Counted from the stretch's first letter, positions 4,194-40,961 are shown. The stretch: DNA of 64,000 nucleotides from an uncultured Candidatus Saccharibacteria bacterium (GCA_964413715.1 CAYPSN010000004.1:7501-71500), one strand, 5' to 3'. A program made the numbers and translations. The notes: generated by a model from the letters alone, not told the origin.

Positions 4194-4241
4194 TTCCTGG
4201 CTGATTAGTAATTTTTAGAGTAAAAAGTTTACACTAAAAAG

Positions 4242-6073: not shown

Positions 6074-6089
6074 GGGGAAGGATCGACTA

Positions 6090-6165
6090 CAGGGTGTGGC
6101 GCAGTAGGTAGCGCGTACGGCTGGGGGCCGTGAGGTCGCAGGTTCAAGTCCTGTCACCCTGACCA
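6090..6165 (+). tRNA. tRNA-Pro, anticodon GGG, CCA encoded
   Basis: Hand-folded 76 nt cloverleaf: acceptor CAGGGTG/CACCCTG, D-stem GCGC/GCGC, anticodon stem TACGG/CCGTG with loop cTGGGgg (U33, G37), T-stem GCAGG/CCTGT, T-loop TTCAAGT, discriminator A, CCA. The minus-strand ORF 6023..6229 ('GLEPAT..') is its translation shadow. Confidence 0.85.
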
Positions 6166-6192
6166 AGCAATTATTTAGATGCTTAAATATAC

Positions 6193-6221
6193 TTGTTGCA
6201 ACCTTATTTTCTCGATATAAT
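6193..6221 (+). promoter_or_regulatory. Putative promoter of giant gene 1: -35 TTGTTG, 17 nt spacer, -10 TATAAT. The predicted transcript starts at the conserved leader 'aagcattattaa'.
   Basis: Read directly. The paralog at 26888-26916 has an analogous -10 at the same distance from the conserved leader. Confidence 0.4.
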
Positions 6222-6287
6222 AACCACAAGCATTATTAATGGAGAAGTAAGGCGGCTTTTCTCCTAAAGCGTCCAGCACAAACAAAA

Positions 6288-9200
6288 ATGGCCGATAAAG
6301 CCAAAACACTACTACAAAAACTCCACCTCAAGCCTTCAACTACTTTGAAGGTGAGTAAGAGTGCAGTATTTATTCTGCTTGGACTCATTTCGATTCAGAC
6401 GGTAGCTGGCGGATTGCTGTGGTATGCCAAGAAGATCAGGGCCAGCGGTGGCATAGTGCAGACCTCTACACTTGTTGCAAGCATACCTGGCTCAAATGGG
6501 GCAGCGTTTGGTAATAGCGTCACGGTAGATGCTAGTGGCAATAAGTATGTTATGGAGTGGTTTAGTGGCATTATCCATAAATATAACAGCTCGGGCGTGC
6601 AGTTGGTGCAATGGGGTGGTAGAAGTAGCAACTTTCTAAATGAGTATGTCCAGGGACAGTTCTATACTGGTGAGTGGAGTTATGCGATAGCCGCCAGCCC
6701 ATCTGGCGATATTTATGCCACGAACGTAGACCATATAGAACGATTTACTAATACAGGTACTTCTGTGACAAGCTGGATCTTGCCGGACGGCTATAGAACT
6801 ATGGGCGGAATAACAGTGGACTCACTTGGCAACGTATACGTAGCCGCTGGACCAAATATCCAAGATCAGCAGTTCGCGCCAAATCAAATTATGAAGTTTG
6901 GCCCTAATGGTGGTGCGACATTGGCACGATGGGGAAGCACGGGCAGTGGGGATGGTCAGTTTTTCAACTCAAATCTATCCCTTGCGAGCCTTCAGCTAGC
7001 TACTGATAGTTCTAATAATGTTTATGTAGTCGACTCCGGGAATTATAGGGTTCAGAAGTTTAATTCAACAGGTAACTATATAGCGCAGTGGGGGTCGCAG
7101 GGGTCAAATGGAAATCAGTTTTTGGGCCCATTTGGAATTGTTGTTACGGCCGATAACAATGTGTACGTTCAAGATGTTGACCAAAATATAGCTGGTGCAC
7201 AGACCTTGAAGAAATTTACGTCATCAGGTCAATTTTTGGCCCAAGCAGCACTACCCAGCTCACAATCAAGTCTGCTTTATGCTCTGGCGAGTGATGGAGG
7301 TAAGTACTTTGTTGCAACAATTCTCGAACCGATTGATGGTAATACATCTGTCGCTAAACTTATCCGTTTGCAAGATACTCTTTCAATAGAGATCACGGCT
7401 AATTCCCTGCCAAATGGTGCGGTTGGCCAGGCCTATTCACAGCAGATTAACGTGGCCGATGCGCAGGGTGATGTTGCATATACAACAACTTCAGGTTCTT
7501 TGCCTGCTGGGCTAAGCCTGAATAGTTCTACTGGTGCGATTACTGGTACGCCGACTACAGCTGGAACATACTCATTTACCGTCCAGGCCGCTGACAATGA
7601 GGCGAGTGACACGCAGGCGTTTGTAATTGTGGTCGATGCTGTAGGTAGGCAGGTTACAACCTTGCAGGTTACAGCAACGAATGAGGATTCGGTAACTATG
7701 AAGGGCACTACGAACCTACCGAGCGATGTTTTACAAGCCGGATTTCAGTATGGCCTAGATACCAACTACGGCTCCAGCCTCTCTTATGATCCAGGTAATA
7801 ACTTTCAAAATTCTTTTTCTTATGAACGTCAAGCTGGCGGATACGGTTCAGGCAATGGTCAAATGAACCAGCCGCTCGATGTGGCGACTGATGCACTAGG
7901 AAAAGTCTACGTTGTGGACACCCAGAATAACAGAATCCAGACTTTTACCTTGTCGGGTGAGTACGTTGGGCAATGGGGTAGTGCAGGATCCGGAAACGGT
8001 CAGTTCAACACTCCTACTCATGTTACCGTTGGGCAAAATGGCAACATTTATGTACTAGATTACGGCAACCAGAGGGTGCAGGTATTTGACTCGTCAGGCG
8101 CCTACATTGCACAGTGGGGCGGGTATGGTTCGGGCAATGGGCAGTTCATCAATCCTCAAGGGGGTATTGATACCGACAGTCAGGGTAATGTGTATGTTGG
8201 AGATACAGCGAACAATCGGGTGCAGAAGTTTGACGCAGCAGGGCTGTATCTTGGGCAGTGGGCCGTTACCAACCCCAAAGGATTGGCCGTGAATTCGGTT
8301 GACAGCGTTTATGTATCCCAAGGAGGATACAATACAATTAGGAAGTTCAGTTCTACGGGCACCCCTCAAGGAGTTATTGGTGGCACAGGCGGTGGATTAT
8401 ATGGCGCTGGTTCGGCTAACGGTGAGTTTGATGGTGTGTACGGTATTGATATAGATCTCGATACAAATCGCATCTTTGCTGCTGACGAAGGGAACTCTCG
8501 AGTTCAGGTGCTTGATGCTGATGGGGTATATATAGCAAAGTTTGGCGCCGCTGGGGCAGGGAATGGCCAGTTTGGAAACGAACGACTAGAAGTCGCTGTT
8601 GCCCCAGATGGGACGGTATTTGTCTCGGACGCTGCGAATGATAGAGTTCAGAAATTTGCAGGACCAATACAAGTGTTCACTAACGGGCTAACTTGTAATA
8701 CAACATATCACTACCGCGCCTTTGCTACAGATACAAACGGGACTGTTTACGGAAATGATGCAGCATTTACAACAAATGCCTGCCCTGACGTCCCGATAAA
8801 TATTACGAATCTTACGCTGCAAGATGGTATGGAATTGGTTGAGTATCAAGACCTAATAAACGTCGAGAATGCCACTGGTCCCGTAGGGTATTATGTAACG
8901 AGCGGTGATCTACCTCCGGGCTTAAGCCTGAATGCGACTACGGGCTACATTAATGGTACGCCAACTACTGCCGGCACATATAATTTCGATGTGACAGTGA
9001 GTGATAGTAATTCTCAAGATATCGTTAATTACAATCTTACTATTTTGAACTACACACCTCCTTTGGAAATAACTACAGCGGCGCTTCCTGATGCACAGTT
9101 AGTGGACTACTCTTTGACGTATAACGAGTATGTATACACTGCGAATAATCAGGGGAACGTGCAGTTTAGTGTTGTGAGTGGCTCATTGCCTCCCGGTATG

Positions 9201-11474
9201 GCGCTTGATAGCGGTTCTACTTCCGCTCACTTGCTTGGATTTACGGGCATACCGGTCGCAGGCACCTATACATTTACTATTCAGGCGCAGGATGAAAGAG
9301 GGAACGGCATAGGAGGTACAGATACTCAGGAATACACCATTGTAGTACCATCTTTACCAAACATTAACATCACAACTACGACACTAGACAATGGTCGAGT
9401 AGGTATACCGTACAATAAGACTATTACCTACGAATGGTATGTGGATCAGCCCACCTTCTCTGTCATATCAGGCTCTTTACCCGATGGCATTTCCCTCACC
9501 CTCAATGGTTACCTTCAGGGTACCCCTACGCAAGTCGGTACTTACACATTCACAGTTCAGGCTGATGACGGTTTTAGCTCTGACACTCAAGAACTAACCT
9601 TAATCGTTGACCCCGCCCCTCCTGCAATCGTAAATACACCTTTCGTCACCATTACCTCACCATCATCTGGTGCTACCTTCACTGGAGGAACCAGTGTCAT
9701 AACAGGTACTGGTCCTGCTAACCAAACCATTGCCTTATTCGTAGACAGCAAGCAGATAGGCACAACCACTGCTAACTCACAGGGTATATGGAGCTACACG
9801 GCCCAAAATATTGCCACAGGCGAGCATACTCTAGATGCCAAATGGATTCCTGGATCAGAGATAATGTTTATTCCCGGCCTCGACCCCTCGGGGGACTTTG
9901 ATGTGCTGAAGGTGATTGACAGCGGCTCCGGAGCGATCGTTAAGACAATTACTCTTAATAACAATGGTTTTATCCCAATCAGTGCAACCTTGGCTAAAGA
10001 TGGTGGCAGTGTATTGGTTTCCGGCCTCAATCAATATTCGGGCAAAGCCGGCATTAAGAATGTTCGGCTAAGTGACATGTCGATAACTACCCTGGAATCA
10101 AATCAAGTAGGAAGAGTCTTCGAAGATGTCGTATTGTCTCCGAATGGTGATATCGGTTACGTCGTCGATGCGTCAATATTTAGTTTATCGGCTCAACTTA
10201 GGAAGTTTGACGTTAGTACTATGACGTTGGATGCCAGCTACGTTGATTTAGGCGACAAATTTAATGCCTCAACGTTGGTGGGCAATGGTCACTTCATTGT
10301 CTTGTCGGACGATGGAACGCAGCTAGCAGTAGCCAATACGGCAGGCGGAGCTAGTTTCACCGTGGTTAACACTAGTGATTTCTCAAGTCAGACAACCCCG
10401 CCAATTAGCCCCCAGGTAGGAGGGAATGGTGTAGTAATCACTGGATTTGATAGAAAAGGCAATACAGCTGTATTGTCACTTATGGACACTTTGGGTCCGT
10501 CGAATAACTACCTGACAGAAACTTCGAGAGTATTTGTCGTAAATACCGACACTCAAGCCGTGACAAGTATACCGACAGCTGGATCTGTCTGGCTGAGTCT
10601 ACACATACTAGGAAATGGTGCAACGTATTTGCAGGGTTTTGACAGTAATAATGCTATTGTTGGCAGACTCAATTCGGACAACGTCCTTACATCTACATCG
10701 GTTCCATTTGGTGATGTGGGTGCTTATGGCGGGTCGAGCCTTCGCTACCTCATTGGTTCCAATGCGTCTCAAGACAAACTGTATACGGCTCTAAGTGATT
10801 CTGATGGAGGTGGTGTGTATGCGAATGTTGTTGAGTGGAACATTACAGGGGCGACTCCTGCATTCGCTAAGCTAATTCGTTTGTCGGGCGTGGCGTCTTA
10901 TGCTGCAGGTTTTGACTTCCTTGGCAGCATTGTGCCGCCAAAAGACAGCATTACCTTTACAGTTCCCGGCTTGCCCAATGAAGATTGTACCAAGACCAAC
11001 ACCTGTGCATGTCAGCAATTAGGCACTTGCCCCAAGCCATGTGGCAGTGTTGGCGGAACTTGCCCTGTATCATGTACCGCTACCAACTCTTGTCCAGTCA
11101 CTACGACGACCGGCGGAAACACGACTATACCTAATATAATAAAGACACCGTTCCCATCTGATGCTGCGCCTACCACGAGTAGACTTGGTTGGTTTGATCG
11201 CAGCGTGTTGTCACTTGCACGCTTTATTCCTGAACAAGCTGCGATTGGCTTCCCATACCTGCTCTTTATCCTTCTGCTTATCTTTGCCTTATCTCTCTAC
11301 TATCAAAGTAGTAATGAGATCCGTAAAGATGCCTTAAACAAACAATTCCTCGCTAAACGTAAATCTATTCGTGCCCAGCAAGACAACTTCATAGCCCTGG
11401 CCTCACACTACATTAACACCCCCATCACCATCATCCAGGGTGGAGTAGAGAATGAGGGGAGGAAATCGAAATGA
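6288..11474 (+). CDS. Giant (1728 aa) two-TM cell-surface protein. Architecture: N-terminal signal-anchor TM, NHL-repeat beta-propellers, several Ig-like (He_PIG/cadherin-like) domains, a further propeller-like region, a Cys/Pro-rich stalk, a C-terminal TM, and a cytoplasmic tail bearing a HisKA H-box-like helix.
   Basis: TM1 'AVFILLGLISIQTVAGGLLWY'. NHL repeats such as 'VVDTQNNRIQTFTLSGEYVGQWGSAGSGNGQFNTP' and 'YVGDTANNRVQKFDAAGLY'. Ig-like 'SGSLPAGLSLNSSTGAITGTPTTAGTYSFTVQAAD'. Stalk 'CTKTNTCACQQLGTCPKPCGSVGGTCPVSCTATNSCP'. TM2 'FPYLLFILLLIFALSLYY'. Tail 'QDNFIALASHYINTPITIIQGG' compares closely with PhoR '[22 protein letters not shown]'. Confidence 0.8.
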   Translation: MADKAKTLLQKLHLKPSTTLKVSKSAVFILLGLISIQTVAGGLLWYAKKIRASGGIVQTSTLVASIPGSNGAAFGNSVTVDASGNKYVMEWFSGIIHKYNSSGVQLVQWGGRSSNFLNEYVQGQFYTGEWSYAIAASPSGDIYATNVDHIERFTNTGTSVTSWILPDGYRTMGGITVDSLGNVYVAAGPNIQDQQFAPNQIMKFGPNGGATLARWGSTGSGDGQFFNSNLSLASLQLATDSSNNVYVVDSGNYRVQKFNSTGNYIAQWGSQGSNGNQFLGPFGIVVTADNNVYVQDVDQNIAGAQTLKKFTSSGQFLAQAALPSSQSSLLYALASDGGKYFVATILEPIDGNTSVAKLIRLQDTLSIEITANSLPNGAVGQAYSQQINVADAQGDVAYTTTSGSLPAGLSLNSSTGAITGTPTTAGTYSFTVQAADNEASDTQAFVIVVDAVGRQVTTLQVTATNEDSVTMKGTTNLPSDVLQAGFQYGLDTNYGSSLSYDPGNNFQNSFSYERQAGGYGSGNGQMNQPLDVATDALGKVYVVDTQNNRIQTFTLSGEYVGQWGSAGSGNGQFNTPTHVTVGQNGNIYVLDYGNQRVQVFDSSGAYIAQWGGYGSGNGQFINPQGGIDTDSQGNVYVGDTANNRVQKFDAAGLYLGQWAVTNPKGLAVNSVDSVYVSQGGYNTIRKFSSTGTPQGVIGGTGGGLYGAGSANGEFDGVYGIDIDLDTNRIFAADEGNSRVQVLDADGVYIAKFGAAGAGNGQFGNERLEVAVAPDGTVFVSDAANDRVQKFAGPIQVFTNGLTCNTTYHYRAFATDTNGTVYGNDAAFTTNACPDVPINITNLTLQDGMELVEYQDLINVENATGPVGYYVTSGDLPPGLSLNATTGYINGTPTTAGTYNFDVTVSDSNSQDIVNYNLTILNYTPPLEITTAALPDAQLVDYSLTYNEYVYTANNQGNVQFSVVSGSLPPGMALDSGSTSAHLLGFTGIPVAGTYTFTIQAQDERGNGIGGTDTQEYTIVVPSLPNINITTTTLDNGRVGIPYNKTITYEWYVDQPTFSVISGSLPDGISLTLNGYLQGTPTQVGTYTFTVQADDGFSSDTQELTLIVDPAPPAIVNTPFVTITSPSSGATFTGGTSVITGTGPANQTIALFVDSKQIGTTTANSQGIWSYTAQNIATGEHTLDAKWIPGSEIMFIPGLDPSGDFDVLKVIDSGSGAIVKTITLNNNGFIPISATLAKDGGSVLVSGLNQYSGKAGIKNVRLSDMSITTLESNQVGRVFEDVVLSPNGDIGYVVDASIFSLSAQLRKFDVSTMTLDASYVDLGDKFNASTLVGNGHFIVLSDDGTQLAVANTAGGASFTVVNTSDFSSQTTPPISPQVGGNGVVITGFDRKGNTAVLSLMDTLGPSNNYLTETSRVFVVNTDTQAVTSIPTAGSVWLSLHILGNGATYLQGFDSNNAIVGRLNSDNVLTSTSVPFGDVGAYGGSSLRYLIGSNASQDKLYTALSDSDGGGVYANVVEWNITGATPAFAKLIRLSGVASYAAGFDFLGSIVPPKDSITFTVPGLPNEDCTKTNTCACQQLGTCPKPCGSVGGTCPVSCTATNSCPVTTTTGGNTTIPNIIKTPFPSDAAPTTSRLGWFDRSVLSLARFIPEQAAIGFPYLLFILLLIFALSLYYQSSNEIRKDALNKQFLAKRKSIRAQQDNFIALASHYINTPITIIQGGVENEGRKSK

Positions 11475-11755
11475 CCCTTATGCTCGCTCACATAGCTATG
11501 GTGGAGTACACTCTAGGCAGGAGTAGTATCATGAAGTTAAGAATCTTAACCCTGGCTTTATTGTTAGCGGCCTATGGCTATTACCTGCAAGGCACAAAAG
11601 CAGCAATTGACAGTCAAATAAGTAAAATTTCTGCTATGTATTCGCAGGCTGCAATGTTTTCGCCTGCGACCGGCCAAGTCGATGAAAATGCGGATGTGAG
11701 TATAAAAAGTGATCATTCTCTTTCAGGTGTATATAGGGAGGATGTAGGGCGATGA
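11471..11755 (+). CDS. Small hypothetical protein with an N-terminal hydrophobic segment. Possibly the remnant of the kinase gene that follows the paralog.
   Basis: ATGA overlap with the giant gene stop and with the HIT gene start. 'MKLRILTLALLLAAYGYY' is hydrophobic. Its 5' nucleotides loosely align with the 5' end of 33450..34721. Confidence 0.3.
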   Translation: MTLMLAHIAMVEYTLGRSSIMKLRILTLALLLAAYGYYLQGTKAAIDSQISKISAMYSQAAMFSPATGQVDENADVSIKSDHSLSGVYREDVGR

Positions 11756-26247: not shown

Positions 26248-26327
26248 AATGATTATTATGGCTGTTTTCGAGGCATCTGCCTAGTCTTTATGACACTAAA
26301 ACACTAGCGTTTTAGCTTAAAATAAGG

Positions 26328-26333
26328 TATAAT
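26328..26333 (+). promoter_or_regulatory. -10 element (TATAAT) positioned 9 nt upstream of the tmRNA 5' end
   Basis: 'aaataaggTATAATtgtgttatGGGGCTG'. Confidence 0.35.
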
Positions 26334-26341
26334 TGTGTTAT

Positions 26342-26729
26342 GGGGCTGATCAGCTTCGACGTTGGAATCTTGAAATATAACTGCAGGTCGCCTAATCGAC
26401 GTTACAGATTAAACCCAATAAGTGTAAACACACTCGTTAGCAAAGTAAAAGCTGCTTTTCGCATGCCAAGCTTTGCGCCAGCTTTCGCTTAATTGATGAA
26501 AGCCGTTTTCGTAGCTGACGTCAGATACGCTACAAGACGTCACTTTATCTGACTGCCTAATGGTCGTTCTGTCCGATTGTTGTTAAGACAAAGAACAGAA
26601 AAGTGTTGCGTGCGTTTCGCTTACTTATAGCGCGCAAACCTTTTGAAACAAAGCTCAAGTAAGCTAAGCCTGTAGTAGGTTATATAGATGGACTAGCGGA
26701 CCAGGGTGCGATTCCCTGCAGCTCCACCA
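26342..26729 (+). ncRNA. ssrA: tmRNA (SsrA)
   Basis: 5' end 'GGGGCTGATCAGCTTCGACGTTGG' matches the tmRNA 5' consensus (E. coli GGGGCUGAUUCUGGAUUCGACGGG). 3' end has T-arm 'cAGGGtgcgattCCCTg', acceptor strand 'CAGCTCC', then A-CCA. The 7 bp acceptor stem includes the G3:U70 alanine identity pair. Candidate tag ORF '(A)AFRMPSFAPAFA' ends at TAA 26490-26492. The structure is bracketed by a promoter and a terminator and contains no long ORF. Confidence 0.8.
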
Positions 26730-26744
26730 GTAATTTTCTATAAA

Positions 26745-26776
26745 AGACCCCCTAAGCTTCCGTGGGGGTCTTTTAT
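26745..26776. terminator. Strong rho-independent terminator after ssrA (potentially bidirectional)
   Basis: 'aaaagaccccc taagcttccgt gggggtctttt'. Confidence 0.6.
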
Positions 26777-26887
26777 ATTTGTATTTGTAATGTAGAAATT
26801 ACAACATGCATTAACAGGTTGGGGGCGTGAAAAATTGGGATCGAATATGAATTGTGTTCAATTAGCAGAAAATGATAATTTTTCTCC

Positions 26888-26916
26888 TGGACTTATCCTG
26901 TTGGGAAGGCTAAAAT
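26888..26916 (+). promoter_or_regulatory. Putative promoter of giant gene 2 (-10 TAAAAT), placing the TSS at the conserved leader 'aagcattattaa'
   Basis: Read directly. Position relative to the conserved leader is the same as in paralog 1. Confidence 0.35.
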
Positions 26917-26994
26917 ATACATAAGCATTATTAACAGGGAATAGATGGTGGCTTTTCTCCTGTAAAAGAGATACCATCAAAAACAAAACAACCC

Positions 26995-29900
26995 ATGGCC
27001 GATAAAGCCAAATTATTACTACAAAGATTCCATCTCAAACCTTCTACTACCCTGAAGGTGAGTAAAGGTGCGGTTTTTGTACTCCTTGCCATGATTTCTA
27101 TTCAGACCGTAGCGGGCGGCTTATTGTGGTATGCAAAGCAAATCAGGGCGGCGAGTGGCCTGCAACATGTGAAGAGCTACGCTGAAGGTGATGGGTCGGG
27201 TAAAATTATCGCGGCTGATAGTCAAAATAACTTTTACGTTTTTGACTTAAGTGATTATGTAGTTAAGAAATATGATGCTGGCGGCAACTTACTTGGTCAA
27301 GTAGGTGCTTCGGGGAGCGACCCAGGGCAGTATGCAAATGTAAGCGGCATGGCAACCGATAGCTCAGGCAACCTATATGTTTTAGATTCTGGCAACAATC
27401 GAGTTATCAAGTATAGTTCAAATGGTAGCTACAGCGGCACTAGTTGGGGGAGTTATGGTACGGGGGATGGTGAATTTGGCTCGTTGGGGTCAATTGCGAT
27501 TAGCTCCGCTGATGACATCTATATAGTCGATGCAGGCAACAGTCGCATCCAGAGGTTTAATTCTTCTGGTGGTTTTGTAAATAAGTGGGGTTCGGCAGGC
27601 TCTGGCGCAGGGCAGTTTAATTACCCATACGGGATTACCACCGATTCTACAGGTTCGGTATATGTGTCGGAAGGTTTTTCTGGTCGTGTGCAGAAGTTTG
27701 GTGCAGCTGGGGGGGCACCTACGGCCACTTGGACGCCAGGAGGGTGGGGTGGTTATATGGCGCGTGGCCCAGGAGATGTAATTTATGTAACTAGCTTGGG
27801 TGGCCTCGTAATAAGGAGTTATAATACCAGCGGAATCTTGCAGAACAGTTGGGGAGGAAGTGGCGGTGGTGCCGGAACATTTAGCGGTCCGTACCTCGAT
27901 GGGACCCTAGCCCTAGATACGTCTGGGAATGTTTACGTGGCTGATTATGGTAATGCGCATATCCAAAAGTTCACTGCTGCAGGATCATATGTAGGTGTCT
28001 ATATTGGTCGTGGTAAGGCAAGCGGCGTGCAGGATGTGGCAACAGACGGTTCTGGTGGTAACATTTACCAGGTAGGCAATGGCTACCTGCGTAAGATTCG
28101 GCGTTCTGATGGTAAGCTAGTCTTCTCTACAAGCATTACAGGGAGTTCTGTAGATGTATCTCCTGACGGCAACTATGTATATGTACTTGCCTCAGGCTGG
28201 GCTGATCCAAATGCACGGGTTACAAAGCTTACATCTTCAGGCACAGTGGTGACACAATGGGGTACTTTTGGTGAGGCAGAAAACCAGTTCAAGGGGGCAG
28301 AGGCACTTGCCGTTGGTGAAGATGGCAGCGTGTATGTGGCGGACACAGCCAACCACCGTATTCAAAAGTTCGATGCGAACGGAAGCTTCTTGCTCATGTG
28401 GGGCTGGGGTGTTCAAAATGGCACAGCTGAGTTTCAAACCTGCACTTCTGGCTGTCAAACTGGTATAGCAGGTAACGGCGACGGGCAATTCGACATGACC
28501 GACTGGTATGGTACAGGCCCCAACCGAGGCCTCGATGTCGACAGCCAAGGGAACGTTTATGTAGCGGACATGCATAACGCCCGAATCCAAAAATTCAGTT
28601 CTACAGGGTCATTTTTTGGTAAATGGGGTTCATTTAGTGATGCCCAGGGCGGCTTTAAATATCCCTATGCCATATCAATTGATTCTCAAGATAATATTTA
28701 CGTATCTTGTATTCTTGGGGCGGGTGAGCGGATTCAGCGCTTTAATTCAAATATGCAGTTTGTGTCAGAATTTACAACAGCAGGTAATTTAGTCCTTTCT
28801 AACCCTCAGGGGATTGCCGTTGATGAACAAGGCCACTTATATGTAGCAGACACTTCAAACAATCGAATCCAGCAATTTAAATACAATTTCTGGTTATCAA
28901 TATCTAATACAGGAGGCGGTGATGGCGTGACCGGCCAGCCATACACAAGCACAGTAGGTATAGACGATCCTCAGGGTCCCACAACGTTCACTGTGACGAG
29001 CGGTAGTTTGCCGCCCGGCCTCTCCCTCAATAGTTCGACCGGCGTAATTAGTGGTACCCCTACTTTGGCTGGCCAGTATACCTCATATATAACCGTCAGT
29101 GATGGCCAGACTTCTGCAGTTACACCAGGCACTACAATTACGATTACTGACCCTCCTCCTGCACCACTCGCGTTTTCTTCTGCTCCGCTGCCCCATGCAA
29201 GAGTTGGCCGCTCGTACTCCCAGCACGTCGACTTAAACAATGTAGTGGGGACGGCGCATTATGAATTAATCAATGCACAACCTTGGAATTCTGGCCTCAG
29301 CTTTAATCCTCAGACGGGGATGATTACTGGAACACCTAATTCAAACAGTCCTACAGTGAGGTTCTCCTTGGAAGCATATGACGATAGATGGTGGGTTACA
29401 AGCACTACAGTCACCGTCACTATAGAATCCGCACATACTGTTACAACGCTGCCAGCCACAGGTTTAGAGGATACAATTACGGGCATAAAGGCGGTTTTAA
29501 ATGGTGCCACCAACTATCCGGACGAGATAACAAATCGAGGTTTTGAATATGGCCTCGATACGAATTATGGCAATACAGTTGTTGATAATACAGCAAATTC
29601 TAGCTACAAAGCTGCTCAGACTTGGAATACAGTTGCGAGCGGCACCACCATGTCAAATGCCAATGAGAGTATGACAATGGATGCAGGTGGGAATAGTTAT
29701 ATCGTCGATTCGTTTAATAGTCGTATACTCAAGTATTCTAAGACCGGCGTTCTTCTCGCAACTTGGGGGTCAGCAGGAACGGGACAAGTAGAATTTAACG
29801 CCCCAGCTGATATTGCTATTGGACCGAGTGGCAACTTCTACGTGGTCGATGCAGGCAATAATCGAGTGCAAATTTTAAACTCATCTGGGTTGTATGTTGG

Positions 29901-32900
29901 TGAATTCGCCCTGCCTTCAGAGGGAGGGAAAGCTATTGCAGTAGACTCGCAAGAGCACATCTACGTAAGTGGCGATGAGTGGAGTGGGCCTTGGTACTTG
30001 AGGGAGGGCAGGCCATATATCCGAAAATATGATTCTCAAGGCAACTTGCTACTAGATTGGGGCACGGAAGGTACCGGAGACTCTCAGTTTAGGGTGACTG
30101 CTCCGCATGATCTTGCTATTGATGGCAATGATGATCTGTATGCTGCAGACATGTATAACAATAGCGTTAAGAAATTCGATAGCAATGGTAGTTTTATCTT
30201 GAAGATTGGCGGAATGGGCCCATATATATATGGAGCAGGTCAGAGTAATGGGGAGTTTGATCATCCCGCCTCATTGGCTGTTGATGCGAATAACAATGTA
30301 TTTGTAGGTGACTATAGCTGGAGAATTCAAAAGTTTGGCATCTCTGGTGTATTTAAATCCAGCTCGCATATTGCAAATGGTGGCTTGTCTTTTGATGTGG
30401 ATGCTGAAGAGAATCTCTTTGTGGCTACTTGGGGTAATCCAAATCAACTTATCAAATATTCCTCAGGTATTGAATCCGCTATCTCAGGCCTAGTATGTGG
30501 CAACACTTATCACTACCGTGCCTTTGCAACAAGCACTGATGGTACGAAATATGGTGACGATGAAGTATTTACAACAGACGCTTGTCCTGACACTCCAATT
30601 TCAATAACGACGTCCTCCCTCTCTACAGGGTATGTGGGGCAGAATTATAGCGAGATCATTAATGTCACTGGTGCTACTGGAAACGTATCATATTTCCTAT
30701 CAGGCGGATCGGACTACCTGCCCTCTGGTTTAAGCTTGGACCCAAACACAGGTGTTATCTCCGGCAACCCGCAAGCCTCTGGAACCGCCAACATTTGTAT
30801 CCGGGCAATGGACGACAACTCGGATGACTTGAGGTGTTGGGATTTAACCATACAGAATATCGTTCCACAGCTAGAAATTACGACCCCGTTATTGCCGGAT
30901 GCCACCCTGTCTGGTATGCAATACGATTACTACAATTCGAACATTTATGTGCAGGGTGCTATAACTAACGACGTTGCGTTTACAGTAGTTAGCGGTGAAT
31001 TGCCTCCCGGACTTAGCCTCCAAGACAACACTTATTATGCAGCTATAATTGGCACTCCAACACAGGCCGGAGTATATACGTTCACAGTCGAGGCAAACGA
31101 TGGCTGGAGAGGATCACCTGGGTTTGCGTGGCAAGAATATACTATTGTTGTTCCTCCTACTTCACTTCCTAGTCTCTATATTGATACCACTTCACTCAGC
31201 AATGGCCTTGTAGGTATCCCATATAATTCCACTATTTACTATCAAGATGCTCAATCTCAACCTGTCTTCTCTCTTGTTTCCGGCTCGTTGCCACCAGGTA
31301 TTTCTTTAAGCCTGGAAGGCTACCTCCAGGGTACACCTACTGAGGCTGGCACCTACACCTTCACAGTCCAAGTTGACGATGGCTTTAGCAGTGACACCCA
31401 AGAACTCACCTTGACTATAGCCCCGCCTCCACTGCCTATAGTAAACACCCCATTCGTAACCATTACCTCACCAACTACAGGATCTACCTTTGCCGGTGGA
31501 ACAAGCGTTATAACTGGTACTGGTCCTGCCAATCAGACTATTACTATCTTCGTAGATAACCAGCAAATAGGTACTACCGCTGCCAACTCTGAAGGAATAT
31601 GGACGTATACTGCACAGAACATTGCAGCCGGTAGCCACAACTTGGACGCCAAGTGGGTGCCGGGAGCAGAGGTGATGTTTAGAACCTCTCTGGACTTTGC
31701 TGCTCTCACTACAAAGCTGACAGTTTACGACACGGCGACTGACACTGTAGTCAAAGAGTTGGCGTTGCCCCCATACGCATTTGCATGGGGCGCGTATGTT
31801 CCGCCTCAAGGTCAAAAAATTGTGGCCTATGGTATAGATGCGAGTTCTACATTCGGGACTTACTGGCAAATAGATCTAAATTCTGGCGCCATCACTACTA
31901 TTTCTACTGGCAGTACCGTTTATCCCAATGACATGGCAGCTAACAGAGATACTATGTTTACATCGGTAGCTGGCGGACTTTTTGCGACTCGGGTGTCAGA
32001 TGGCTCCTCACTTGGTCCGATTAATCTTGGCATCCCTTCAGAGCTGAACATTCCTTTTAACTTACAGCTCTCTGAAGACGGTACACGACTTTACGCCTAC
32101 TCGGGTATCGTAACTGGTTTGCCTTCTTTCCTTTCATACTCAAATAATTGGCTCGAGCAAGCCCTGCCATACATGGGGAAGATATTCGTCATTAATACGT
32201 CTGACCTGAGTGTTATTAGTAGTTATAATACAATTGATAATACTAATTGGCAGACAGAAGGGTATGAAGTTCCATTTGGGTTTGCCTATGCCAATGGAGT
32301 CGCATATGTGCCATCTGGAAGTTATCCTGCGACTCAAACCCCTCCTGACTTTGAGGTAGAAACTAATTTCAAGGCATATTCCTTGTCAAGTGGCGCATTA
32401 TTATACAGTCACAATATCTCTGCTGATTACCCGCAGGATGATATCCTTGCAGGGGGGGGTTACATCGATTCTACTCGCGGCAATGTATTCTTTAAGACTA
32501 TTAGTATTGATAATGACCAGTCAGTGCTTAAACCTGGCCTTGCTCGATGGAATTTAGTAAGTAATTCGGTCGATCAATACACGGTTGTATCTGATCAGAT
32601 TCAAGAAGGGCAGGATAACGCCTCCCTGGCCGACATGTATCTATTGAACTTTTTGAGTTGGGGTATGGATGGGGGGGGAAATAATGAGCGCTTGTATCTT
32701 ACAGGTCTAGGGGGCAATTATACTGGCGTTACTTACGCATTCTCACTTTCTAATAATCAATTTGTAGAGGGTAGCGGCTATCCGCTTACACACGGCACAC
32801 CTGGTAGTTCCATTGCATACCAATTTGGCCCCAACTTCATCGGTCCTATCACCCCACCTAAGGACAGTATGGCCTTCTCTGTACCATCGACTCCTGAGCC

Positions 32901-33450
32901 TCCCGCCTGCCAGCAACAGGGCAATTGCCCTCCAGTAGACTGTAATGCAACCAATACCTGTCCTAAGCCCTGTACTCTGACGAGTGGCACCTGCCCCCAG
33001 CCATGTACTGCCACCAACTCATGTCCTCAGCCTCCACTAACAGACTGTACCACCACCAACTCCTGCCCTGGTACTACTACCACCGGTGGCACTACAACCA
33101 CTCCTACCATTATCTCCACACCATTCCCTCCAGCCTCCAAGGCTACACCCACGAACTCACGCCTGGGTTGGTTTGACCGTAGCGTCCTCTCGCTTGCACG
33201 CTTTATCCCCGAGCAAGCTGCCATTGGCTTCCCATATCTCTTGTTTATGCTTCTGCTTGTCTTTGCTTTATCTCTCTATTACCAGAGTAGTAATGAAATA
33301 CGCAAAGATGCCTTAAACAAACAGTTCCTCGCTAAACGTAAATCTATTCGTGCCCAACAGGACAACTTCATAGCTCTAGCCTCGCACTACCTCAACACTC
33401 CTATCACCATCATCCAGGGCGGAGTAGAGAATGAGGAGAGGAAACGTTGA
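26995..33450 (+). CDS. Giant (2151 aa) two-TM cell-surface protein paralogous to 6288..11474. Same architecture: TM, NHL propellers, Ig-like domains, Cys/Pro stalk, TM, HisKA H-box tail.
   Basis: Near-identical N-terminus ('MADKAKLLLQRFHLKPSTTLKVSKGAVFVLLAMISIQTVAGGLLWYAKQIRA'). NHL repeats ('LDSGNNRVIKYSSNGSY', 'VADTANHRIQKFDANGSF', 'ADMHNARIQKFSSTGSF'). Ig-like 'SGSLPPGLSLNSSTGVISGTPTLAGQY'. Stalk 'CPKPCTLTSGTCPQPCTATNSCPQPPLTDCTTTNSCP'. TM2 'FPYLLFMLLLVFALSLYY'. Tail 'QDNFIALASHYLNTPITIIQGGVENEERKR*'. Confidence 0.8.
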   Translation: MADKAKLLLQRFHLKPSTTLKVSKGAVFVLLAMISIQTVAGGLLWYAKQIRAASGLQHVKSYAEGDGSGKIIAADSQNNFYVFDLSDYVVKKYDAGGNLLGQVGASGSDPGQYANVSGMATDSSGNLYVLDSGNNRVIKYSSNGSYSGTSWGSYGTGDGEFGSLGSIAISSADDIYIVDAGNSRIQRFNSSGGFVNKWGSAGSGAGQFNYPYGITTDSTGSVYVSEGFSGRVQKFGAAGGAPTATWTPGGWGGYMARGPGDVIYVTSLGGLVIRSYNTSGILQNSWGGSGGGAGTFSGPYLDGTLALDTSGNVYVADYGNAHIQKFTAAGSYVGVYIGRGKASGVQDVATDGSGGNIYQVGNGYLRKIRRSDGKLVFSTSITGSSVDVSPDGNYVYVLASGWADPNARVTKLTSSGTVVTQWGTFGEAENQFKGAEALAVGEDGSVYVADTANHRIQKFDANGSFLLMWGWGVQNGTAEFQTCTSGCQTGIAGNGDGQFDMTDWYGTGPNRGLDVDSQGNVYVADMHNARIQKFSSTGSFFGKWGSFSDAQGGFKYPYAISIDSQDNIYVSCILGAGERIQRFNSNMQFVSEFTTAGNLVLSNPQGIAVDEQGHLYVADTSNNRIQQFKYNFWLSISNTGGGDGVTGQPYTSTVGIDDPQGPTTFTVTSGSLPPGLSLNSSTGVISGTPTLAGQYTSYITVSDGQTSAVTPGTTITITDPPPAPLAFSSAPLPHARVGRSYSQHVDLNNVVGTAHYELINAQPWNSGLSFNPQTGMITGTPNSNSPTVRFSLEAYDDRWWVTSTTVTVTIESAHTVTTLPATGLEDTITGIKAVLNGATNYPDEITNRGFEYGLDTNYGNTVVDNTANSSYKAAQTWNTVASGTTMSNANESMTMDAGGNSYIVDSFNSRILKYSKTGVLLATWGSAGTGQVEFNAPADIAIGPSGNFYVVDAGNNRVQILNSSGLYVGEFALPSEGGKAIAVDSQEHIYVSGDEWSGPWYLREGRPYIRKYDSQGNLLLDWGTEGTGDSQFRVTAPHDLAIDGNDDLYAADMYNNSVKKFDSNGSFILKIGGMGPYIYGAGQSNGEFDHPASLAVDANNNVFVGDYSWRIQKFGISGVFKSSSHIANGGLSFDVDAEENLFVATWGNPNQLIKYSSGIESAISGLVCGNTYHYRAFATSTDGTKYGDDEVFTTDACPDTPISITTSSLSTGYVGQNYSEIINVTGATGNVSYFLSGGSDYLPSGLSLDPNTGVISGNPQASGTANICIRAMDDNSDDLRCWDLTIQNIVPQLEITTPLLPDATLSGMQYDYYNSNIYVQGAITNDVAFTVVSGELPPGLSLQDNTYYAAIIGTPTQAGVYTFTVEANDGWRGSPGFAWQEYTIVVPPTSLPSLYIDTTSLSNGLVGIPYNSTIYYQDAQSQPVFSLVSGSLPPGISLSLEGYLQGTPTEAGTYTFTVQVDDGFSSDTQELTLTIAPPPLPIVNTPFVTITSPTTGSTFAGGTSVITGTGPANQTITIFVDNQQIGTTAANSEGIWTYTAQNIAAGSHNLDAKWVPGAEVMFRTSLDFAALTTKLTVYDTATDTVVKELALPPYAFAWGAYVPPQGQKIVAYGIDASSTFGTYWQIDLNSGAITTISTGSTVYPNDMAANRDTMFTSVAGGLFATRVSDGSSLGPINLGIPSELNIPFNLQLSEDGTRLYAYSGIVTGLPSFLSYSNNWLEQALPYMGKIFVINTSDLSVISSYNTIDNTNWQTEGYEVPFGFAYANGVAYVPSGSYPATQTPPDFEVETNFKAYSLSSGALLYSHNISADYPQDDILAGGGYIDSTRGNVFFKTISIDNDQSVLKPGLARWNLVSNSVDQYTVVSDQIQEGQDNASLADMYLLNFLSWGMDGGGNNERLYLTGLGGNYTGVTYAFSLSNNQFVEGSGYPLTHGTPGSSIAYQFGPNFIGPITPPKDSMAFSVPSTPEPPACQQQGNCPPVDCNATNTCPKPCTLTSGTCPQPCTATNSCPQPPLTDCTTTNSCPGTTTTGGTTTTPTIISTPFPPASKATPTNSRLGWFDRSVLSLARFIPEQAAIGFPYLLFMLLLVFALSLYYQSSNEIRKDALNKQFLAKRKSIRAQQDNFIALASHYLNTPITIIQGGVENEERKR

Positions 33451-34721
33451 TGAGCGACGCAGTAGCTCGTATACTAGAGCATAAGCAAGATATGAAGACA
33501 ATACCACCCATTACATCTAAGCCAAAGCAGCTGGAGAAGGATGTTGCTAAGGCCTCTGACAATCAGCTTAACGCCGAAGTAGCCAAGACTGCACAGGTCG
33601 TGGCAGAGTATGCTCAAGAGCACGGCAATGCTGCCGCAGAGTTGAGCGAACATACCGAAGCGATGGCTAAGATTGTAGCTACGCTTTCTGCCAAGATTAA
33701 CGCTGTAGAGAATAGCTCTGATCATGATTACATAATCCCTGAAACTAAAAACCCCCTCCTTAGCCTAGCATTCTTGGTGCCCGCCCTTGTTTTGGTAGGG
33801 ATCATTACAGTCGGGATATGGCTCTTTAGTTTGGCAGGCATACTAAAGGCAGATACTGTCTACCTGCTCACCGTGGGCGTTGCTGCGCTACTTGTGCTGC
33901 AGGTATTAGTAAGCAACATTCGTAATTTTCAGCTTCATCATCGTATAGCCAAGCAGTCCCGCCTGGCGGTAGAAGACGAGCTAAAGCTCGAAAAAGCCCG
34001 CGCAGAACTCTTTAGTAGCGCTACCGAGGAGCTACAGGGCCATTTATTCGCCATAACAAGTGCGATACCACCTGGGCAGAACAAGTCGATCGACGACGCT
34101 ACTAATCGCTTAATGGAGCTGCTCGACCGTATGAGCTTAATTTCGAACCTAACCCGTCGGGGGGCTGATTATGTATTGAATACTGAAGAGATTGAGCTAT
34201 CATCACAACTGGCGCACATTATTGCGGATTGTAAGGCAAAGTATCGCGACGCCAGTGTAGAGGTGCAGTTGCATGCACAGCAGCATAAAGCGACACTCGA
34301 CCCCCTCTTGTTTGAGCAAGCAATCAGCCCGGTTATTAATAACGCCATTAAATTTAGCCAGCATGCGGAGGGTGGGGGTAAGGTTGTCGTCCAATTAGAG
34401 GCCCTCAGGGGTGGCTTTAAGCTGCAGGTGATAGATAATGGCCCTGGTATCGCTCCGGAGCGTCGTAGTCAGCTATTCAAGCCGTTCTCGCGCGGTGAGG
34501 ATGCTCTAAGGTTCAACTATGAAGGTGCAGGCCTAGGTTTGTATTTGGCAAGCTTGGCAACTGGTTTGCTCGGGGGTAGTCTTGCAATCGCCGACAGTAA
34601 GCAAGGCTCAGTGTTTGAATGGACGTTTACCGGTCTAGAGGTTCAGCATCATGAGGCAACAAAGCACAACTCGGCAGACAAGTCGAAAGCTGGCAGCCGA
34701 CACCTTGCAGCCCATGCCTAA
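33450..34721 (+). CDS. Membrane-bound histidine-kinase ATPase subunit (HATPase_c with N, G1, F, G2 boxes) lacking a canonical H-box of its own. Its start overlaps the giant gene's stop (TGATG).
   Basis: Two TM helices ('LAFLVPALVLVGIITVGIWLF', 'VYLLTVGVAALLVLQVLV'). N-box 'INNAIKFSQH', G1 'VIDNGPGI', F 'FKPFSRGE', G2 'GAGLGLYLA'. No 'SHELRTPL'-like motif was found in this ORF. Confidence 0.7.
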   Translation: MSDAVARILEHKQDMKTIPPITSKPKQLEKDVAKASDNQLNAEVAKTAQVVAEYAQEHGNAAAELSEHTEAMAKIVATLSAKINAVENSSDHDYIIPETKNPLLSLAFLVPALVLVGIITVGIWLFSLAGILKADTVYLLTVGVAALLVLQVLVSNIRNFQLHHRIAKQSRLAVEDELKLEKARAELFSSATEELQGHLFAITSAIPPGQNKSIDDATNRLMELLDRMSLISNLTRRGADYVLNTEEIELSSQLAHIIADCKAKYRDASVEVQLHAQQHKATLDPLLFEQAISPVINNAIKFSQHAEGGGKVVVQLEALRGGFKLQVIDNGPGIAPERRSQLFKPFSRGEDALRFNYEGAGLGLYLASLATGLLGGSLAIADSKQGSVFEWTFTGLEVQHHEATKHNSADKSKAGSRHLAAHA

Positions 34722-34758: not shown

Positions 34759-35133
34759 GTGCGCAGAACTATTAATAACAAAAGTGAGGCGTCTATGCGT
34801 TTTTCTAAAGGTGAGCGAGCAGTACTCGTAGCGAGTAGTATTCTGCCAGCCATGTATGCAGCAGGGATGGCAGTAGGGCAGATGTATAAGCACTATAATC
34901 CCGCAGGGGTAGATATTAATTCGGGCTTAGCCTACCTGCGCGAAGGCTTAGTTGCTGGGTTTGGCACTGGGCTTGCGCTTGCAGCTGTTAGTTTAGCAAT
35001 GATCTTAAAACTTAGAGCGGGCGAGGAGCGATCGTACGCACGCGTTGCGGGGGTAATTATGGGCATCCAGGCGAGTGTATTTGTGTTTGTGCTGATTCTG
35101 ACCAAGTTGTTCCCATTGCCTCCGCTTGGGTAG
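34759..35133 (+). CDS. Small hypothetical membrane protein
   Basis: Hydrophobic helices ('AVLVASSILPAMYAAGMAV', 'VAGFGTGLALAAVSLAMIL', 'IMGIQASVFVFVLIL'). No recognised family. Confidence 0.3.
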   Translation: MRRTINNKSEASMRFSKGERAVLVASSILPAMYAAGMAVGQMYKHYNPAGVDINSGLAYLREGLVAGFGTGLALAAVSLAMILKLRAGEERSYARVAGVIMGIQASVFVFVLILTKLFPLPPLG

Positions 35134-35146: not shown

Positions 35147-35182
35147 TTAAAAACTCCCTCGGCATAGTCCGGGGAGTTTTTA
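35147..35182. terminator. Rho-independent terminator after the kinase operon
   Basis: 'aaaaactccc tcggcatagtcc ggggagttttt'. Confidence 0.55.
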
Positions 35183-38795: not shown

Positions 38796-40856
38796 CTACT
38801 GGAGTTTGCTCGTAAGAATCCTTTGACCGCTCAGTAAGTACGCAGTATTGTCTTTAACTATGAAAGAAGTAGTCTTCGTGGAGCTTGGCAAGGCAAACTC
38901 TTTCGTAAACTTTGGCGTATCATCACCGATGTCGAGCGACACAATGCCTTGCTTGCTGTTCGTTAGCGCATAGAGCGTATCGTTGCTGCCGAGGGCAAGC
39001 AGCGTGAGTCCTGCAATTGAACGGGGTAGCTTGCTGACAGCTATGCTCTCACCAATACCATTGCTAAATAGTTTTAAATCTCTCGAAGCATTGGCTACTA
39101 GGATTGATCCGTTGACGGCTAAGCCGGTGGCCGAGCTAATACTGACGTCATTGGATCGCTTGATGTAGCTTGAGCTGGCGCTGAAACCAACCGAAGTGGG
39201 GCTGTGACGATATATTTGATTATTTTCAGGAGAGAGTATGTAGAGATTGCCAATGTAACTGGCGATGGCGTTTCCATTTGACCAATCACCGGCACTAAGC
39301 TGCACCTGCTTAAGGCTTTTGCCTGGGCTATACTGCCATACGCTTGGCTCTGAAGTTAATATATAGAGTGTCGAGCCACTTGATGAGGTGGTGGCTGCAA
39401 CTGCTTTCTTGAGCGACGAGTCTTTTGCTACCTGAGTGTAGGACTTTTTGGCAGTATCAATCTGATATAGACTGCCGGAATTAGTATCAACGGAGTAGAG
39501 TCGGTCGTCAATTTGCGTTATAAAATTTGCTTTAAAACCTGAAATCGATGAGAAATCTACAACAACATCGGGTTTAAGCCTGGTGATGTTGTTCAGTTTA
39601 TCTTCGATATCGCTCAAGCGTTGATTGAGATTATCAAGACTTGCAGCTTGCTGCGAGGCCAGGTAGGTATCGTCTTTTTTGACGCGAGCAATCTGGGCTG
39701 GTGTGTATTCTTTGCGTATGTAGGCGATTTTCGTCTTTGCTGCAGCGACTGAAGCCTGACTTGGTTCTGACTTGCCAAGGCTCAGTTGAGCTTCGGCGCT
39801 TTCAGTAAGGGCAATAGCCTCCTTATAGGAGGTTACGAGGTTCTTGCGATTGTAATTATTGTTTGAAGCAAACATATAGCCGCCAATTAGGACAGCAACA
39901 ATCGTGAGCGCAATAATCAAGGCACGCTTTGGATTTGGGTTAATATGATTGGTCCAGAGCTTGTTCCAGAAGTTTTTACTCTTGTCCTTCACGCCTGGTG
40001 CTAACGAATGTTTCACCCAATGATGACCTCGCCCTAAAGTAGTCTTCAGGCTACCAGCAGCTTTGCTGGCTGTAGGGGCTAGGGCTCCTTTGAGGCTATC
40101 AATTTTTGTCTTTGGTTTGCCTACCATGGCAGTTTCGGGTTCGTGTTCTAGGGGTTGATCGGCTGCGCTATCCCAGTTCGTTAGCTCTACCGCTAGGGCG
40201 GCACAGCGGGCGGCGTTTTGGTCGTTTTTCAGAAGAGCTTTGAGCTTTTGGGCGGTGGAAGTTGGGGAGTTGTCTTGAATAATGCTATTAAGTGTATTCG
40301 TTTCAAACTCAAACATAACTGCTGGAGTAGCAAAAAACAGCTTGTCGGCCTCGTGGAGGCTGCCTTCGGCTACACCCTGAAATACTTTCGCTTGATTCTT
40401 GCTGTCAAAGAGCCCGCTTGCTAGGTCAATGATGGATTTTTTGCGATACAATCGCGCATGGGCTTTGCCACAGGAGGTAAGATAGAGCTCAGACTGGTTG
40501 ATGACGGCGATTACGGCATGGATGTCGCTAAGCTGTTTCCCATGGTGCGATGCCTTAAGCTGCGTTATCTGCTTGTTAAGTACTGCAATGGCTTTTTCAA
40601 ACCGGTTCTCTGCTTCAGCTGTGTATTTTTTATTGTAATATTCCTCGCCAATCGTTCTGATTACCATATCGACAACTTGACTAGCCAGACTGTCCTTGGC
40701 CAGCACTTCAATAACGATATAGAGGCTGCCTAGCTGGTTGTCTTGCTCGATTGGTGGCTCAAAGTGGTAGGAGAAGGCGAGACCAGGGGTGGTGCTTGGC
40801 TGTGATGCCGTGTATGGCAAAAGCTTGCCGACTCGGTGGAGAAAAAGAGGATTCAT
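38796..40856 (-). CDS. Hypothetical bitopic membrane protein: a cytoplasmic N-terminal domain of about 330 aa, one TM, and an extracellular C-terminal beta-rich (propeller-like) domain of about 340 aa
   Basis: Central TM 'ALIIALTIVAVLIGGYMFA'. C-terminal repeats such as 'LYSVDTNSGSLYQID', 'LYILTSEPSVWQYS', 'LYILSPENNQIYRHS'. No family recognised. Confidence 0.4.
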   Translation of the reverse strand: MNPLFLHRVGKLLPYTASQPSTTPGLAFSYHFEPPIEQDNQLGSLYIVIEVLAKDSLASQVVDMVIRTIGEEYYNKKYTAEAENRFEKAIAVLNKQITQLKASHHGKQLSDIHAVIAVINQSELYLTSCGKAHARLYRKKSIIDLASGLFDSKNQAKVFQGVAEGSLHEADKLFFATPAVMFEFETNTLNSIIQDNSPTSTAQKLKALLKNDQNAARCAALAVELTNWDSAADQPLEHEPETAMVGKPKTKIDSLKGALAPTASKAAGSLKTTLGRGHHWVKHSLAPGVKDKSKNFWNKLWTNHINPNPKRALIIALTIVAVLIGGYMFASNNNYNRKNLVTSYKEAIALTESAEAQLSLGKSEPSQASVAAAKTKIAYIRKEYTPAQIARVKKDDTYLASQQAASLDNLNQRLSDIEDKLNNITRLKPDVVVDFSSISGFKANFITQIDDRLYSVDTNSGSLYQIDTAKKSYTQVAKDSSLKKAVAATTSSSGSTLYILTSEPSVWQYSPGKSLKQVQLSAGDWSNGNAIASYIGNLYILSPENNQIYRHSPTSVGFSASSSYIKRSNDVSISSATGLAVNGSILVANASRDLKLFSNGIGESIAVSKLPRSIAGLTLLALGSNDTLYALTNSKQGIVSLDIGDDTPKFTKEFALPSSTKTTSFIVKDNTAYLLSGQRILTSKLQ

Positions 40857-40961
40857 ATCTTGGATTATCTTAAAGCTTAAGCTATAGCAGTAGCATACCA
40901 TTTTTTACAGTGCTTAACCAGGTAGACGCTGATATAATAATAGGTATGAAGAGGGTGGAGA

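Follow-up and report, generated by a model that had tools for sequence, protein, structure and literature searches.

Classical two-component sensor kinases are single chains in which a His-bearing DHp domain is fused to the catalytic domain (CA). In a 64,000-nucleotide stretch of DNA from an uncultured Candidatus Saccharibacteria bacterium (GCA_964413715.1 CAYPSN010000004.1:7501-71500; the whole stretch analysed is called the window), a giant surface protein of 2151 amino acids (aa), encoded by open reading frame (ORF) A, ends in a cytoplasmic tail that resembles the phospho-acceptor helix of such a kinase, and the ATP-binding part is encoded by the next frame, ORF B. The locus raises the question of whether the kinase is really made as two polypeptides and, if so, where it is cut and how the pieces would work. 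The comparative sequence evidence identifies the split as genuine and conserved, with no sequencing error behind it, and as a natural gene fission in a family of membrane sensor histidine kinases; the tail is, by the same evidence, homologous to the phospho-acceptor helix of relatives that have all parts in one polypeptide. The features on which this rests are as follows (TM, transmembrane; DHp1 and DHp2, first and second DHp domain).

26995..33450, plus strand: ORF A, 2151 aa, the proposed receptor and His-donor subunit
27067..27132, plus strand: TM1 of ORF A, residues 25-46
32908..33072, plus strand: Cys/Pro stalk of ORF A
33217..33282, plus strand: TM2 of ORF A, AAIGFPYLLFMLLLVFALSLYY, with the FPY motif typical of the family
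33283..33447, plus strand: cytoplasmic tail of ORF A, 55 aa, assigned to helix alpha1 of DHp1 (positions 5-84 of the fused-family profile)
33358..33432, plus strand: H-box of the tail, QDNFIALASHYLNTPITIIQGG
33385..33387, plus strand: codon CAC of the putative phospho-acceptor His2131
33433..33452, plus strand: junction, with the purine-rich Shine-Dalgarno-like GAGGAGAGGAAA in the last ORF A codons, then TGATG
33450..34721, plus strand: ORF B (ATG 33450; alternative TTG 33447), 423-aa kinase subunit (positions 86-424 of the fused-family profile)
33627..33707, plus strand: helix alpha2 of the split DHp1, ORF B residues 60-86, ELSEHTEAMAKIVATLSAKINAV, homologous to KKLQDMTKRIADKAKLISSNL of the fused kinase L017
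33756..33920, plus strand: TM hairpin of ORF B (TM3, residues 103-132; TM4, residues 137-157)
33921..34184, plus strand: DHp2 of ORF B, contiguous with the CA
34026..34028, plus strand: Glu193, at the canonical His position of DHp2
34041..34043, plus strand: clade-specific His198 in DHp2
34299..34628, plus strand: HATPase_c catalytic domain (N box 34329..34358, G1 34434..34451, F 34473..34496, G2 34524..34541)

ORF A runs from an N-terminal cytoplasmic peptide through TM1, an ectodomain of ~2030 aa made of NHL, He_PIG and Big domains, the Cys/Pro stalk and TM2 to the 55-aa tail. Pfam matched NHL in 10 stretches (E 1e-62) and He_PIG in 5 stretches (E 6e-31), and also Big_7. The original prediction, which had been made from the window alone, had described this succession of TM1, NHL/He_PIG ectodomain, Cys/Pro stalk and TM2, and each part was recovered where it had been placed. 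The same was true of ORF B, for which two TM helices and an ATPase domain had been noted: Pfam recognised HATPase_c at residues 284-393 (E 1.8e-18, above cutoff), and the N, G1 (DNGPGI), F and G2 (GAGLGL) boxes are almost invariant in an alignment of 11 orthologs. In one ortholog, P0012, Asn replaces the G1-box Asp (ANNGPGI), which may mean weakened ATP binding or an assembly error. The closest solved sequence to ORF B is HK853 (residues ~160-393, E 6e-17).

The H-box likeness of the tail is weak by generic models. Pfam HisKA matched the isolated 51-aa tail over model positions 2-26 with 20.2 bits (E 6e-4), against a gathering score of 26.9, and NCBIfam models of the PnpS/PhoR H-box region matched it with E values of 7e-4 to 2e-3. 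By a profile of fused relatives, in contrast, the likeness appears decisive (83.7 bits, E 1e-24), and the putative His codon lies at 33385-33387, as had been predicted. The DHp1 His is invariant in all 70 fused sequences compared, which had been chosen without reference to it, and in the 9 of 9 tails examined. The residue that follows the His is Tyr in every one of 154 family members (SHYL[RN]TP; 33385..33390 in ORF A), in a position where HisKA H-boxes usually have Glu or Asp; this hints at atypical catalysis or phosphatase chemistry.

A further element of the original prediction, that no H-box could be found in ORF B, needs correction. HisKA was not matched in the Pfam scan of ORF B, but BLASTP aligned its SSATEELQG region (RAELFSSATEELQGHL), an H-box-like DHp helix, with ordinary kinases (MAITHELKTPI and ANLTHELGRPL), Glu193 falling opposite the His. 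The DHp attached to the CA is therefore genuine but His-less. Its acceptor position is occupied by Glu193 in ORF B, by Asp in orthologs and by Gly in L017, and the canonical His column of DHp2 contains A, T, E, D, V or L, never His. Two other residues, His68 and His198, are invariant within the ORF B clade and absent from fused relatives. His198 falls opposite the Pro that H-boxes conserve, five residues past the acceptor position, where fused members have Asp or other residues.

Fused relatives and the position of the cut

More than 160 relatives contain all of the parts in one chain. Those that are named belong to Saccharimonadales or Patescibacteria, and the kinase family has been seen so far only in records labelled Saccharibacteria or Patescibacteria. 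The order in the fused proteins is a variable ectodomain, a TM helix with FPY, DHp1 with SHYLxTP (alpha1-loop-alpha2), a TM hairpin, a His-less DHp2 with an ARNxF-type helix, and HATPase_c (CA); the ORF A tail and ORF B together hold all of these elements in this order. Pfam and NCBIfam contain no model dedicated to such a tandem-DHp, four-TM architecture. One fused member, L017, was recovered when genomes were scanned with the tail alignment. Its one continuous frame (985..7320, 2112 codons; 2106 aa from a GTG start) encodes an NHL ectodomain, a TM helix, NFISLASHYLNTPITIIQGAIDVLYTTKKIPQSTAKKLQDMTKRIADKAKLISSNL, two TM helices, RDEFLHETVGELNTDVETL and HATPase_c. Pfam HisKA matches its H-box region across both alpha1 and alpha2 (25.3 bits, E 1.6e-5). 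L017 aligns with the ORF A tail at 48% identity and, from its second DHp1 helix onward, with residues 60-390 of ORF B (E 2e-33).

When the ORF B alignment profile was searched against 1.84 billion representative proteins, the split cluster came first, followed mostly by proteins of 435-2301 aa that match profile positions ~30-370 at their C-terminus; all of the long matches that were read have the same order of parts. A further search yielded 401 matches, and the 120 listed are mostly of ~650 aa and, where named, are Saccharimonadales/Saccharibacteria 'ATP-binding protein'. The deposited labels of fused members are 'ATP-binding protein', 'hypothetical protein' and 'signal transduction histidine kinase' (e.g. 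P0124, P0130, P0219 and P0275). Metagenome loci supplied 13 more full-length fused copies. A word-indexed protein database search for tail homologues returned three fragments only; a scan of metagenome contigs gave no match with the tail alignment, and the matches to the ORF B alignment were confined to ordinary kinases and distant fused members, without any further split locus. A narrow hidden Markov model (HMM) of alpha2 plus the TM hairpin recovered few members, among which the H-box-less ones were split ones only. A distant family member, P0250 (361 aa), begins with MGGIELL at the point where alpha1 ends after the H-box, and may reflect a second, independent fission event or else a gene call cut short.

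On the profile of the 154 fused members, the ORF A tail covers positions 5-84 (E 1e-24) and ORF B covers positions 86-424 (E 2e-63), and this complementary coverage is repeated in the related loci L007, L011 and L016. It points to gene fission at the end of helix alpha1 of DHp1, ~14 residues past the His. The prediction that the His helix and the CA lie on separate polypeptides thus stands, and the cut lies not between DHp and CA but at the end of the first DHp1 helix. Giant NHL/He_PIG ectodomains are not a mark of split kinases; they are also found on unsplit ones (L017, 2106 aa; P0124, 2110 aa; P0130, 2103 aa). Relative to fused members, ORF B has acquired an N-terminal extension that is variable and ~59 aa long. 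The helix within it (residues 36-58) was considered as a degenerate copy of alpha1 and rejected, with no significant similarity found (second HMM domain, E = 30).

The fused member P0219 was modelled with AlphaFold (70 homologues; predicted local distance difference test score, pLDDT, 83.4; predicted template modelling score, pTM, 0.69), and the model shows TM2 and alpha1 as one helix (18-94), then alpha2 (104-125), TM3 (149-172), a second continuous helix formed by TM4 and alpha1 of DHp2 (179-246), alpha2 of DHp2 (258-280) and an alpha/beta CA domain. Foldseek matched this model to the DHp and CA cores of HK853, WalK, RetS, DivL and BceS. His2131 of the tail and Glu193 of ORF B lie 35 and 36 residues, respectively, below their own TM helices and would therefore be at a similar depth from the membrane.

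The junction, the distal paralog and the orthologs

A second giant gene is located in the upstream part of the window:

6288..11474, plus strand: distal giant paralog, 1728 aa, sharing N-terminus, TM2 and tail with ORF A and ending in NFIALASHYINTPITIIQGGVENEGRKSK before the stop codon
11406..11408, plus strand: codon of His1707 of the distal paralog

No kinase gene follows it; the next genes are a 94-aa ORF, a HIT gene and UppP-like and RNase H-like genes (the last two read by eye). The window has a single ORF B for two giants, which differ widely in the ectodomain and are nearly identical in the membrane and tail parts. Distal giants match the fused-family profile only at positions 5-84 to 92, and the 12 close cluster relatives of ORF B (54-100% identity, 388-423 aa) all have HATPase_c only. 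The distal-type giant is the copy present in all five genomes examined. Each of the five genomes with ORF B has one or more tail-bearing giants, and three have both copies; L011 and L016 show the same giant/ORF B arrangement as the window. In L001 and L004, ORF B is solitary, and the only tail-bearing giant detected in the examined sequence is on the same contig, ~17.5 kb and 19 kb upstream, respectively, in the position of the distal paralog.

As had been predicted, the TGA of ORF A (33448-33450) overlaps the ATG of ORF B (33450), the A being common to both. The stop puts the His-bearing helix and the CA on separate polypeptides, an arrangement that five genomes have in common. An identical TGATG junction, flanked by differing codons, is found in L006, L007, L011 and L016, which come from independent assemblies: in L007 (a 63% ortholog), a 1983-aa NHL/He_PIG ORF ends in IIQGGVEMEEGKRKH and its stop with the same TGATG overlap, and the L006 locus (a 70% ortholog) begins within a frame ending in NEERKR and a stop, then TGATG. 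Independent gene calls yield the identical 423-aa ORF B product (P0001). In both giants, the final codons (GAGGAGAGGAAA in ORF A and GAGGGGAGGAAA in the paralog) also form a Shine-Dalgarno-like sequence in front of the ORF that overlaps the stop, which, together with the overlap of stop and start, suggests translational coupling of ORF A and ORF B. Stop-codon readthrough was ruled out by a TAG four codons past the TGA in the same frame, and programmed -1 frameshifting by the lack of an X_XXY_YYZ slippery heptamer and by the distance between giant and ORF B in two genomes.

The membrane-proximal parts of the giants are much better conserved than their ectodomains. Across paralogs and orthologs, identity is 80-93% in TM2 plus tail and 60-82% in the N-terminus plus TM1, compared with 22-60% over most of the ectodomain and 44-72% in the 75 residues that precede TM2. 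For the N-terminal propeller region, identity is 27% when the two window giants are compared and 76% when the adjacent copy of the window is compared with its ortholog in L011. Over TM2 and H-box (71 codons), the proportion of synonymous differences (pS) is 0.22-0.91 and that of nonsynonymous differences (pN) is 0-0.14 (pN/pS ~0.05-0.2), which indicates strong purifying selection on the tail. Since the two window paralogs differ there by 23 synonymous and 4 nonsynonymous changes, the likeness of their tails reflects constraint rather than recent gene conversion.

Several neighbouring genes were also compared. The 94-aa ORF after the distal giant (window 11471..11755, plus strand) has one TM helix, overlaps the stop of the giant (ATGA) and is kept in the same place in two other genomes (L013 3766..4098 and L015 6275..6556). 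It was considered as an alpha2-like partner of the distal giant and set aside, there being no evident similarity. Directly 3' of ORF B lie the following features:

34759..35133, plus strand: small membrane protein, 124 aa, ~three TM helices, which may share an operon with ORF B
35157..35174: terminator-like hairpin after the 124-aa gene

L007, L011 and L016 have a homologue of the 124-aa protein after ORF B; L001 and L004 have a NUDIX gene there instead, and L006 lacks the gene for the 124-aa protein. The region between a divergent pair of GT4 glycosyltransferase genes and ORF B is variable (window ~26248..33449; L001 7200..10000; L004 5750..10000) and contains a giant gene in the window, L007 and L011, an alpha/beta hydrolase gene with small ORFs in L001, and DUF218 and acyltransferase genes in L004. 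The flanking synteny is conserved (ComM-like, GalT, GT4, GT4 ... FBA, SmpB, ArgRS). A 701-aa ORF at window 38796..40901 (minus strand) has counterparts of 685-692 aa in the same syntenic position in all related loci; these counterparts have no Pfam match on record.

A proposed shared kinase subunit and the rival explanations

We consider it probable that the fission has produced a shared kinase: the giants would carry helix alpha1 in their tails and ORF B the rest, and the giants would act as interchangeable receptors that lend their acceptor helix. With the tail, alpha2, DHp2 and CA all cytoplasmic in the predicted topology, the tail helix of a giant would pack against alpha2 of ORF B in the membrane and rebuild DHp1, the hydrophobic face of NFIALASHYLNTPITII being a candidate contact surface in the pairing of the tail with ORF B residues 1-100. 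The CA, held by DHp2, would then phosphorylate the tail His in trans (His2131 in ORF A, His1707 in the paralog). Giants with different ectodomains, which plausibly sense surface or host contact, could thus serve as alternative receptor subunits for one kinase subunit, and the adjacent ORF A/ORF B pair could be made in matched amounts via the overlapping stop and start codons. We infer both the formation of the complex and the trans-phosphorylation from the sequences, with indirect support only, which comes from the presence of a tail-bearing giant alongside ORF B in five of five genomes, from the purifying selection on the tail and from the overlap of stop and start codons.

Several points weigh against this reading. 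The tail alone scores below the curated Pfam HisKA cutoff, the Tyr after the His means that the chemistry may be atypical, and the clade-specific His68 and His198 could be alternative acceptors. An AlphaFold run on a chimera of tail and ORF B was uninformative, with pLDDT below 50 in the alpha2 region, and mean-field direct coupling analysis (154 sequences; effective number, Neff, 122) was dominated by noise and too noisy for use. No response regulator lies next to the fused members examined, and a receiver-domain HMM that did detect its positive controls (L018-L023) had no match in the window, L001-L017 (183 kb), L024 or L025. Separately, the top pair of the coupling analysis joins P0219 residues 69 (Asn of the H-box KDN) and 393 (ATP-lid region of the CA); it would fit a CA docked on DHp1 but is not trusted at this Neff.

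The leading alternative, which we regard as rather unlikely although still a real contender, is that the two proteins are sub-functionalised remnants. The giants would be mainly adhesins whose tail is a docking or regulatory helix or an anchor with an unphosphorylated His, and ORF B would be a pseudokinase or ATPase, or would accept phosphate itself on His198 or His68. The two invariant His residues that fused relatives lack would fit this, as would the missing response regulator in the window and related loci scanned, the Tyr that is atypical for catalysis, and the DHp of ORF B without a canonical His, a trait of DivL and RetS, which are both among the fold matches. However, the tail His, like the H-box as a whole, does not vary among split or fused members; His198 aligns with the H-box Pro rather than with the acceptor and is Asp or other residues in fused members; and the ATP-binding motifs of ORF B are fully conserved, so that a substrate His is to be expected.

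Two further explanations were weighed. Simple decay, in which an ancestral giant kinase was interrupted by a stop mutation and survives as two pseudogene fragments that are being lost, is in keeping with the ready loss of genes by reduced-genome Saccharibacteria and with the loss of the giant beside ORF B in two genomes. We nevertheless judge it very improbable: selection on the tail is strongly purifying, the 12 clusters of ORF B keep all catalytic boxes down to 54% identity, the split state persists in at least five species-level genomes, and both frames are intact (2151 and 423 aa). An artefact (an indel from sequencing or assembly) or recoding (a programmed -1 frameshift), with one conventional fused giant kinase as the true product, can be discounted with the greatest assurance of all. 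The frames overlap by only ~15 nt (33435..33449), so that a single indel there would fuse them, and an A-rich AGGAAAC stands just before the stop. The same stop is found, however, in the paralog, with no kinase gene downstream, and in independent assemblies with differing junction sequences, which argues against a frameshift error. The junction has no slippery heptamer, and ORF B has its own ATG after a Shine-Dalgarno-like sequence, with independent gene calls giving the same 423 aa. In two genomes, no fusion is possible, because the only giant found there and ORF B are 17-19 kb apart. The indel that the original prediction had named as what would overturn it is thus contradicted by the paralog, the assemblies and this separation alike.

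If the shared-kinase reading is true, the locus encodes a receptor with an associated kinase, a logic like that of eukaryotic receptors with non-covalently bound kinases, and an ultra-small epibiotic bacterium would couple several host- or surface-contact sensors to one kinase. A His-bearing DHp separated by a TM hairpin from a His-less DHp-CA could also give built-in 'trans' phosphorylation. The split clade offers a natural complementation experiment on how a DHp bundle assembles and how a CA finds its His, one that strong selection has kept even where the genes are ~20 kb apart. In addition, the giant surface proteins of episymbiotic Saccharibacteria, the functions of which are largely obscure, would be tied to intracellular signalling, providing a testable route for attachment sensing. 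Annotation pipelines label these kinases 'ATP-binding protein' or 'hypothetical', overlooking the His-bearing tail.

Comparison with known kinases

The original prediction held that a split or trans-acting histidine kinase with this architecture is not a described class, which is too broad a claim. CheA3/CheA4 of Rhodobacter sphaeroides are split kinases, and up to 1.7% of kinases are estimated to be split (PMC3591291); Hik36/Hik43 of Synechocystis is a split CheA (PMC7656254). In these systems, as in that proposed here, one protein bears the phosphorylatable His and another the ATP-binding catalytic domain, the two need to associate, and their genes can be far apart. They differ in being soluble kinases of the CheA type (class II), cut between whole domains (HPt/P1 versus dimerisation plus kinase), whereas the window appears to encode a HisKA-type transmembrane kinase cut inside the DHp hairpin, with the His piece as the tail of a ~2000-aa protein.

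For Rv0600c/Rv0601c, Shrivastava et al. in 2007 reportedly placed ATP binding on HK1 and the His on HK2. With TcrA, these proteins are listed as a three-protein system in Mycobacterium tuberculosis (PMC3544749). This system resembles the present one as a class I kinase with its ATP and His parts on adjacent genes. There, however, the cut lies between a complete DHp and the CA, and the response regulator gene is adjacent; here, the donor keeps one DHp helix, an extra His-less DHp is present, and no regulator was found nearby.

The fused kinases of Saccharimonadales and Patescibacteria share with the window the FPY TM helix, SHYLxTP, alpha2, the TM hairpin, the His-less DHp and the CA, but they hold all of these on one polypeptide, whereas in the window the chain is cut after alpha1 of DHp1 and the receptor part is duplicated. 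The ~650-aa fused members lie divergently beside a pair of genes for a MacB_PCD/FtsX permease and an ABC ATPase (L024 5884..9995; L025 5849..9932). This neighbourhood recalls Bce-type transporter-kinase modules but has no adjacent response regulator. Literature searches on two-component systems of Saccharibacteria and Patescibacteria found nothing relevant.

Among canonical kinases, HK853 resembles ORF B in its DHp and CA core by sequence; HK853, WalK and BceS resemble the fused P0219 in that core by fold, and the tail matches the H-box region of PhoR/PnpS. In the family described here, by contrast, the His is on a DHp upstream of the TM hairpin, and in the window clade on another protein, while the DHp at the CA is His-less. 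DivL and RetS also have a DHp and CA fold without the canonical His in the attached DHp; in ORF B, unlike these, the His-bearing helix would be supplied by a partner protein or domain, and the ATP boxes are intact. It is possible, and we propose this tentatively, that this is the first natural kinase cut inside the DHp bundle, with giants that plug alpha1 into a shared subunit, and that the unsplit form is itself an undescribed architecture, perhaps with an intramolecular pseudo-dimeric bundle. Split histidine kinases as such are known; what differs here is the cut inside the DHp hairpin, the second, His-less DHp behind a TM hairpin and the duplicated His piece, which forms the tail of surface proteins of ~1700-2150 aa.

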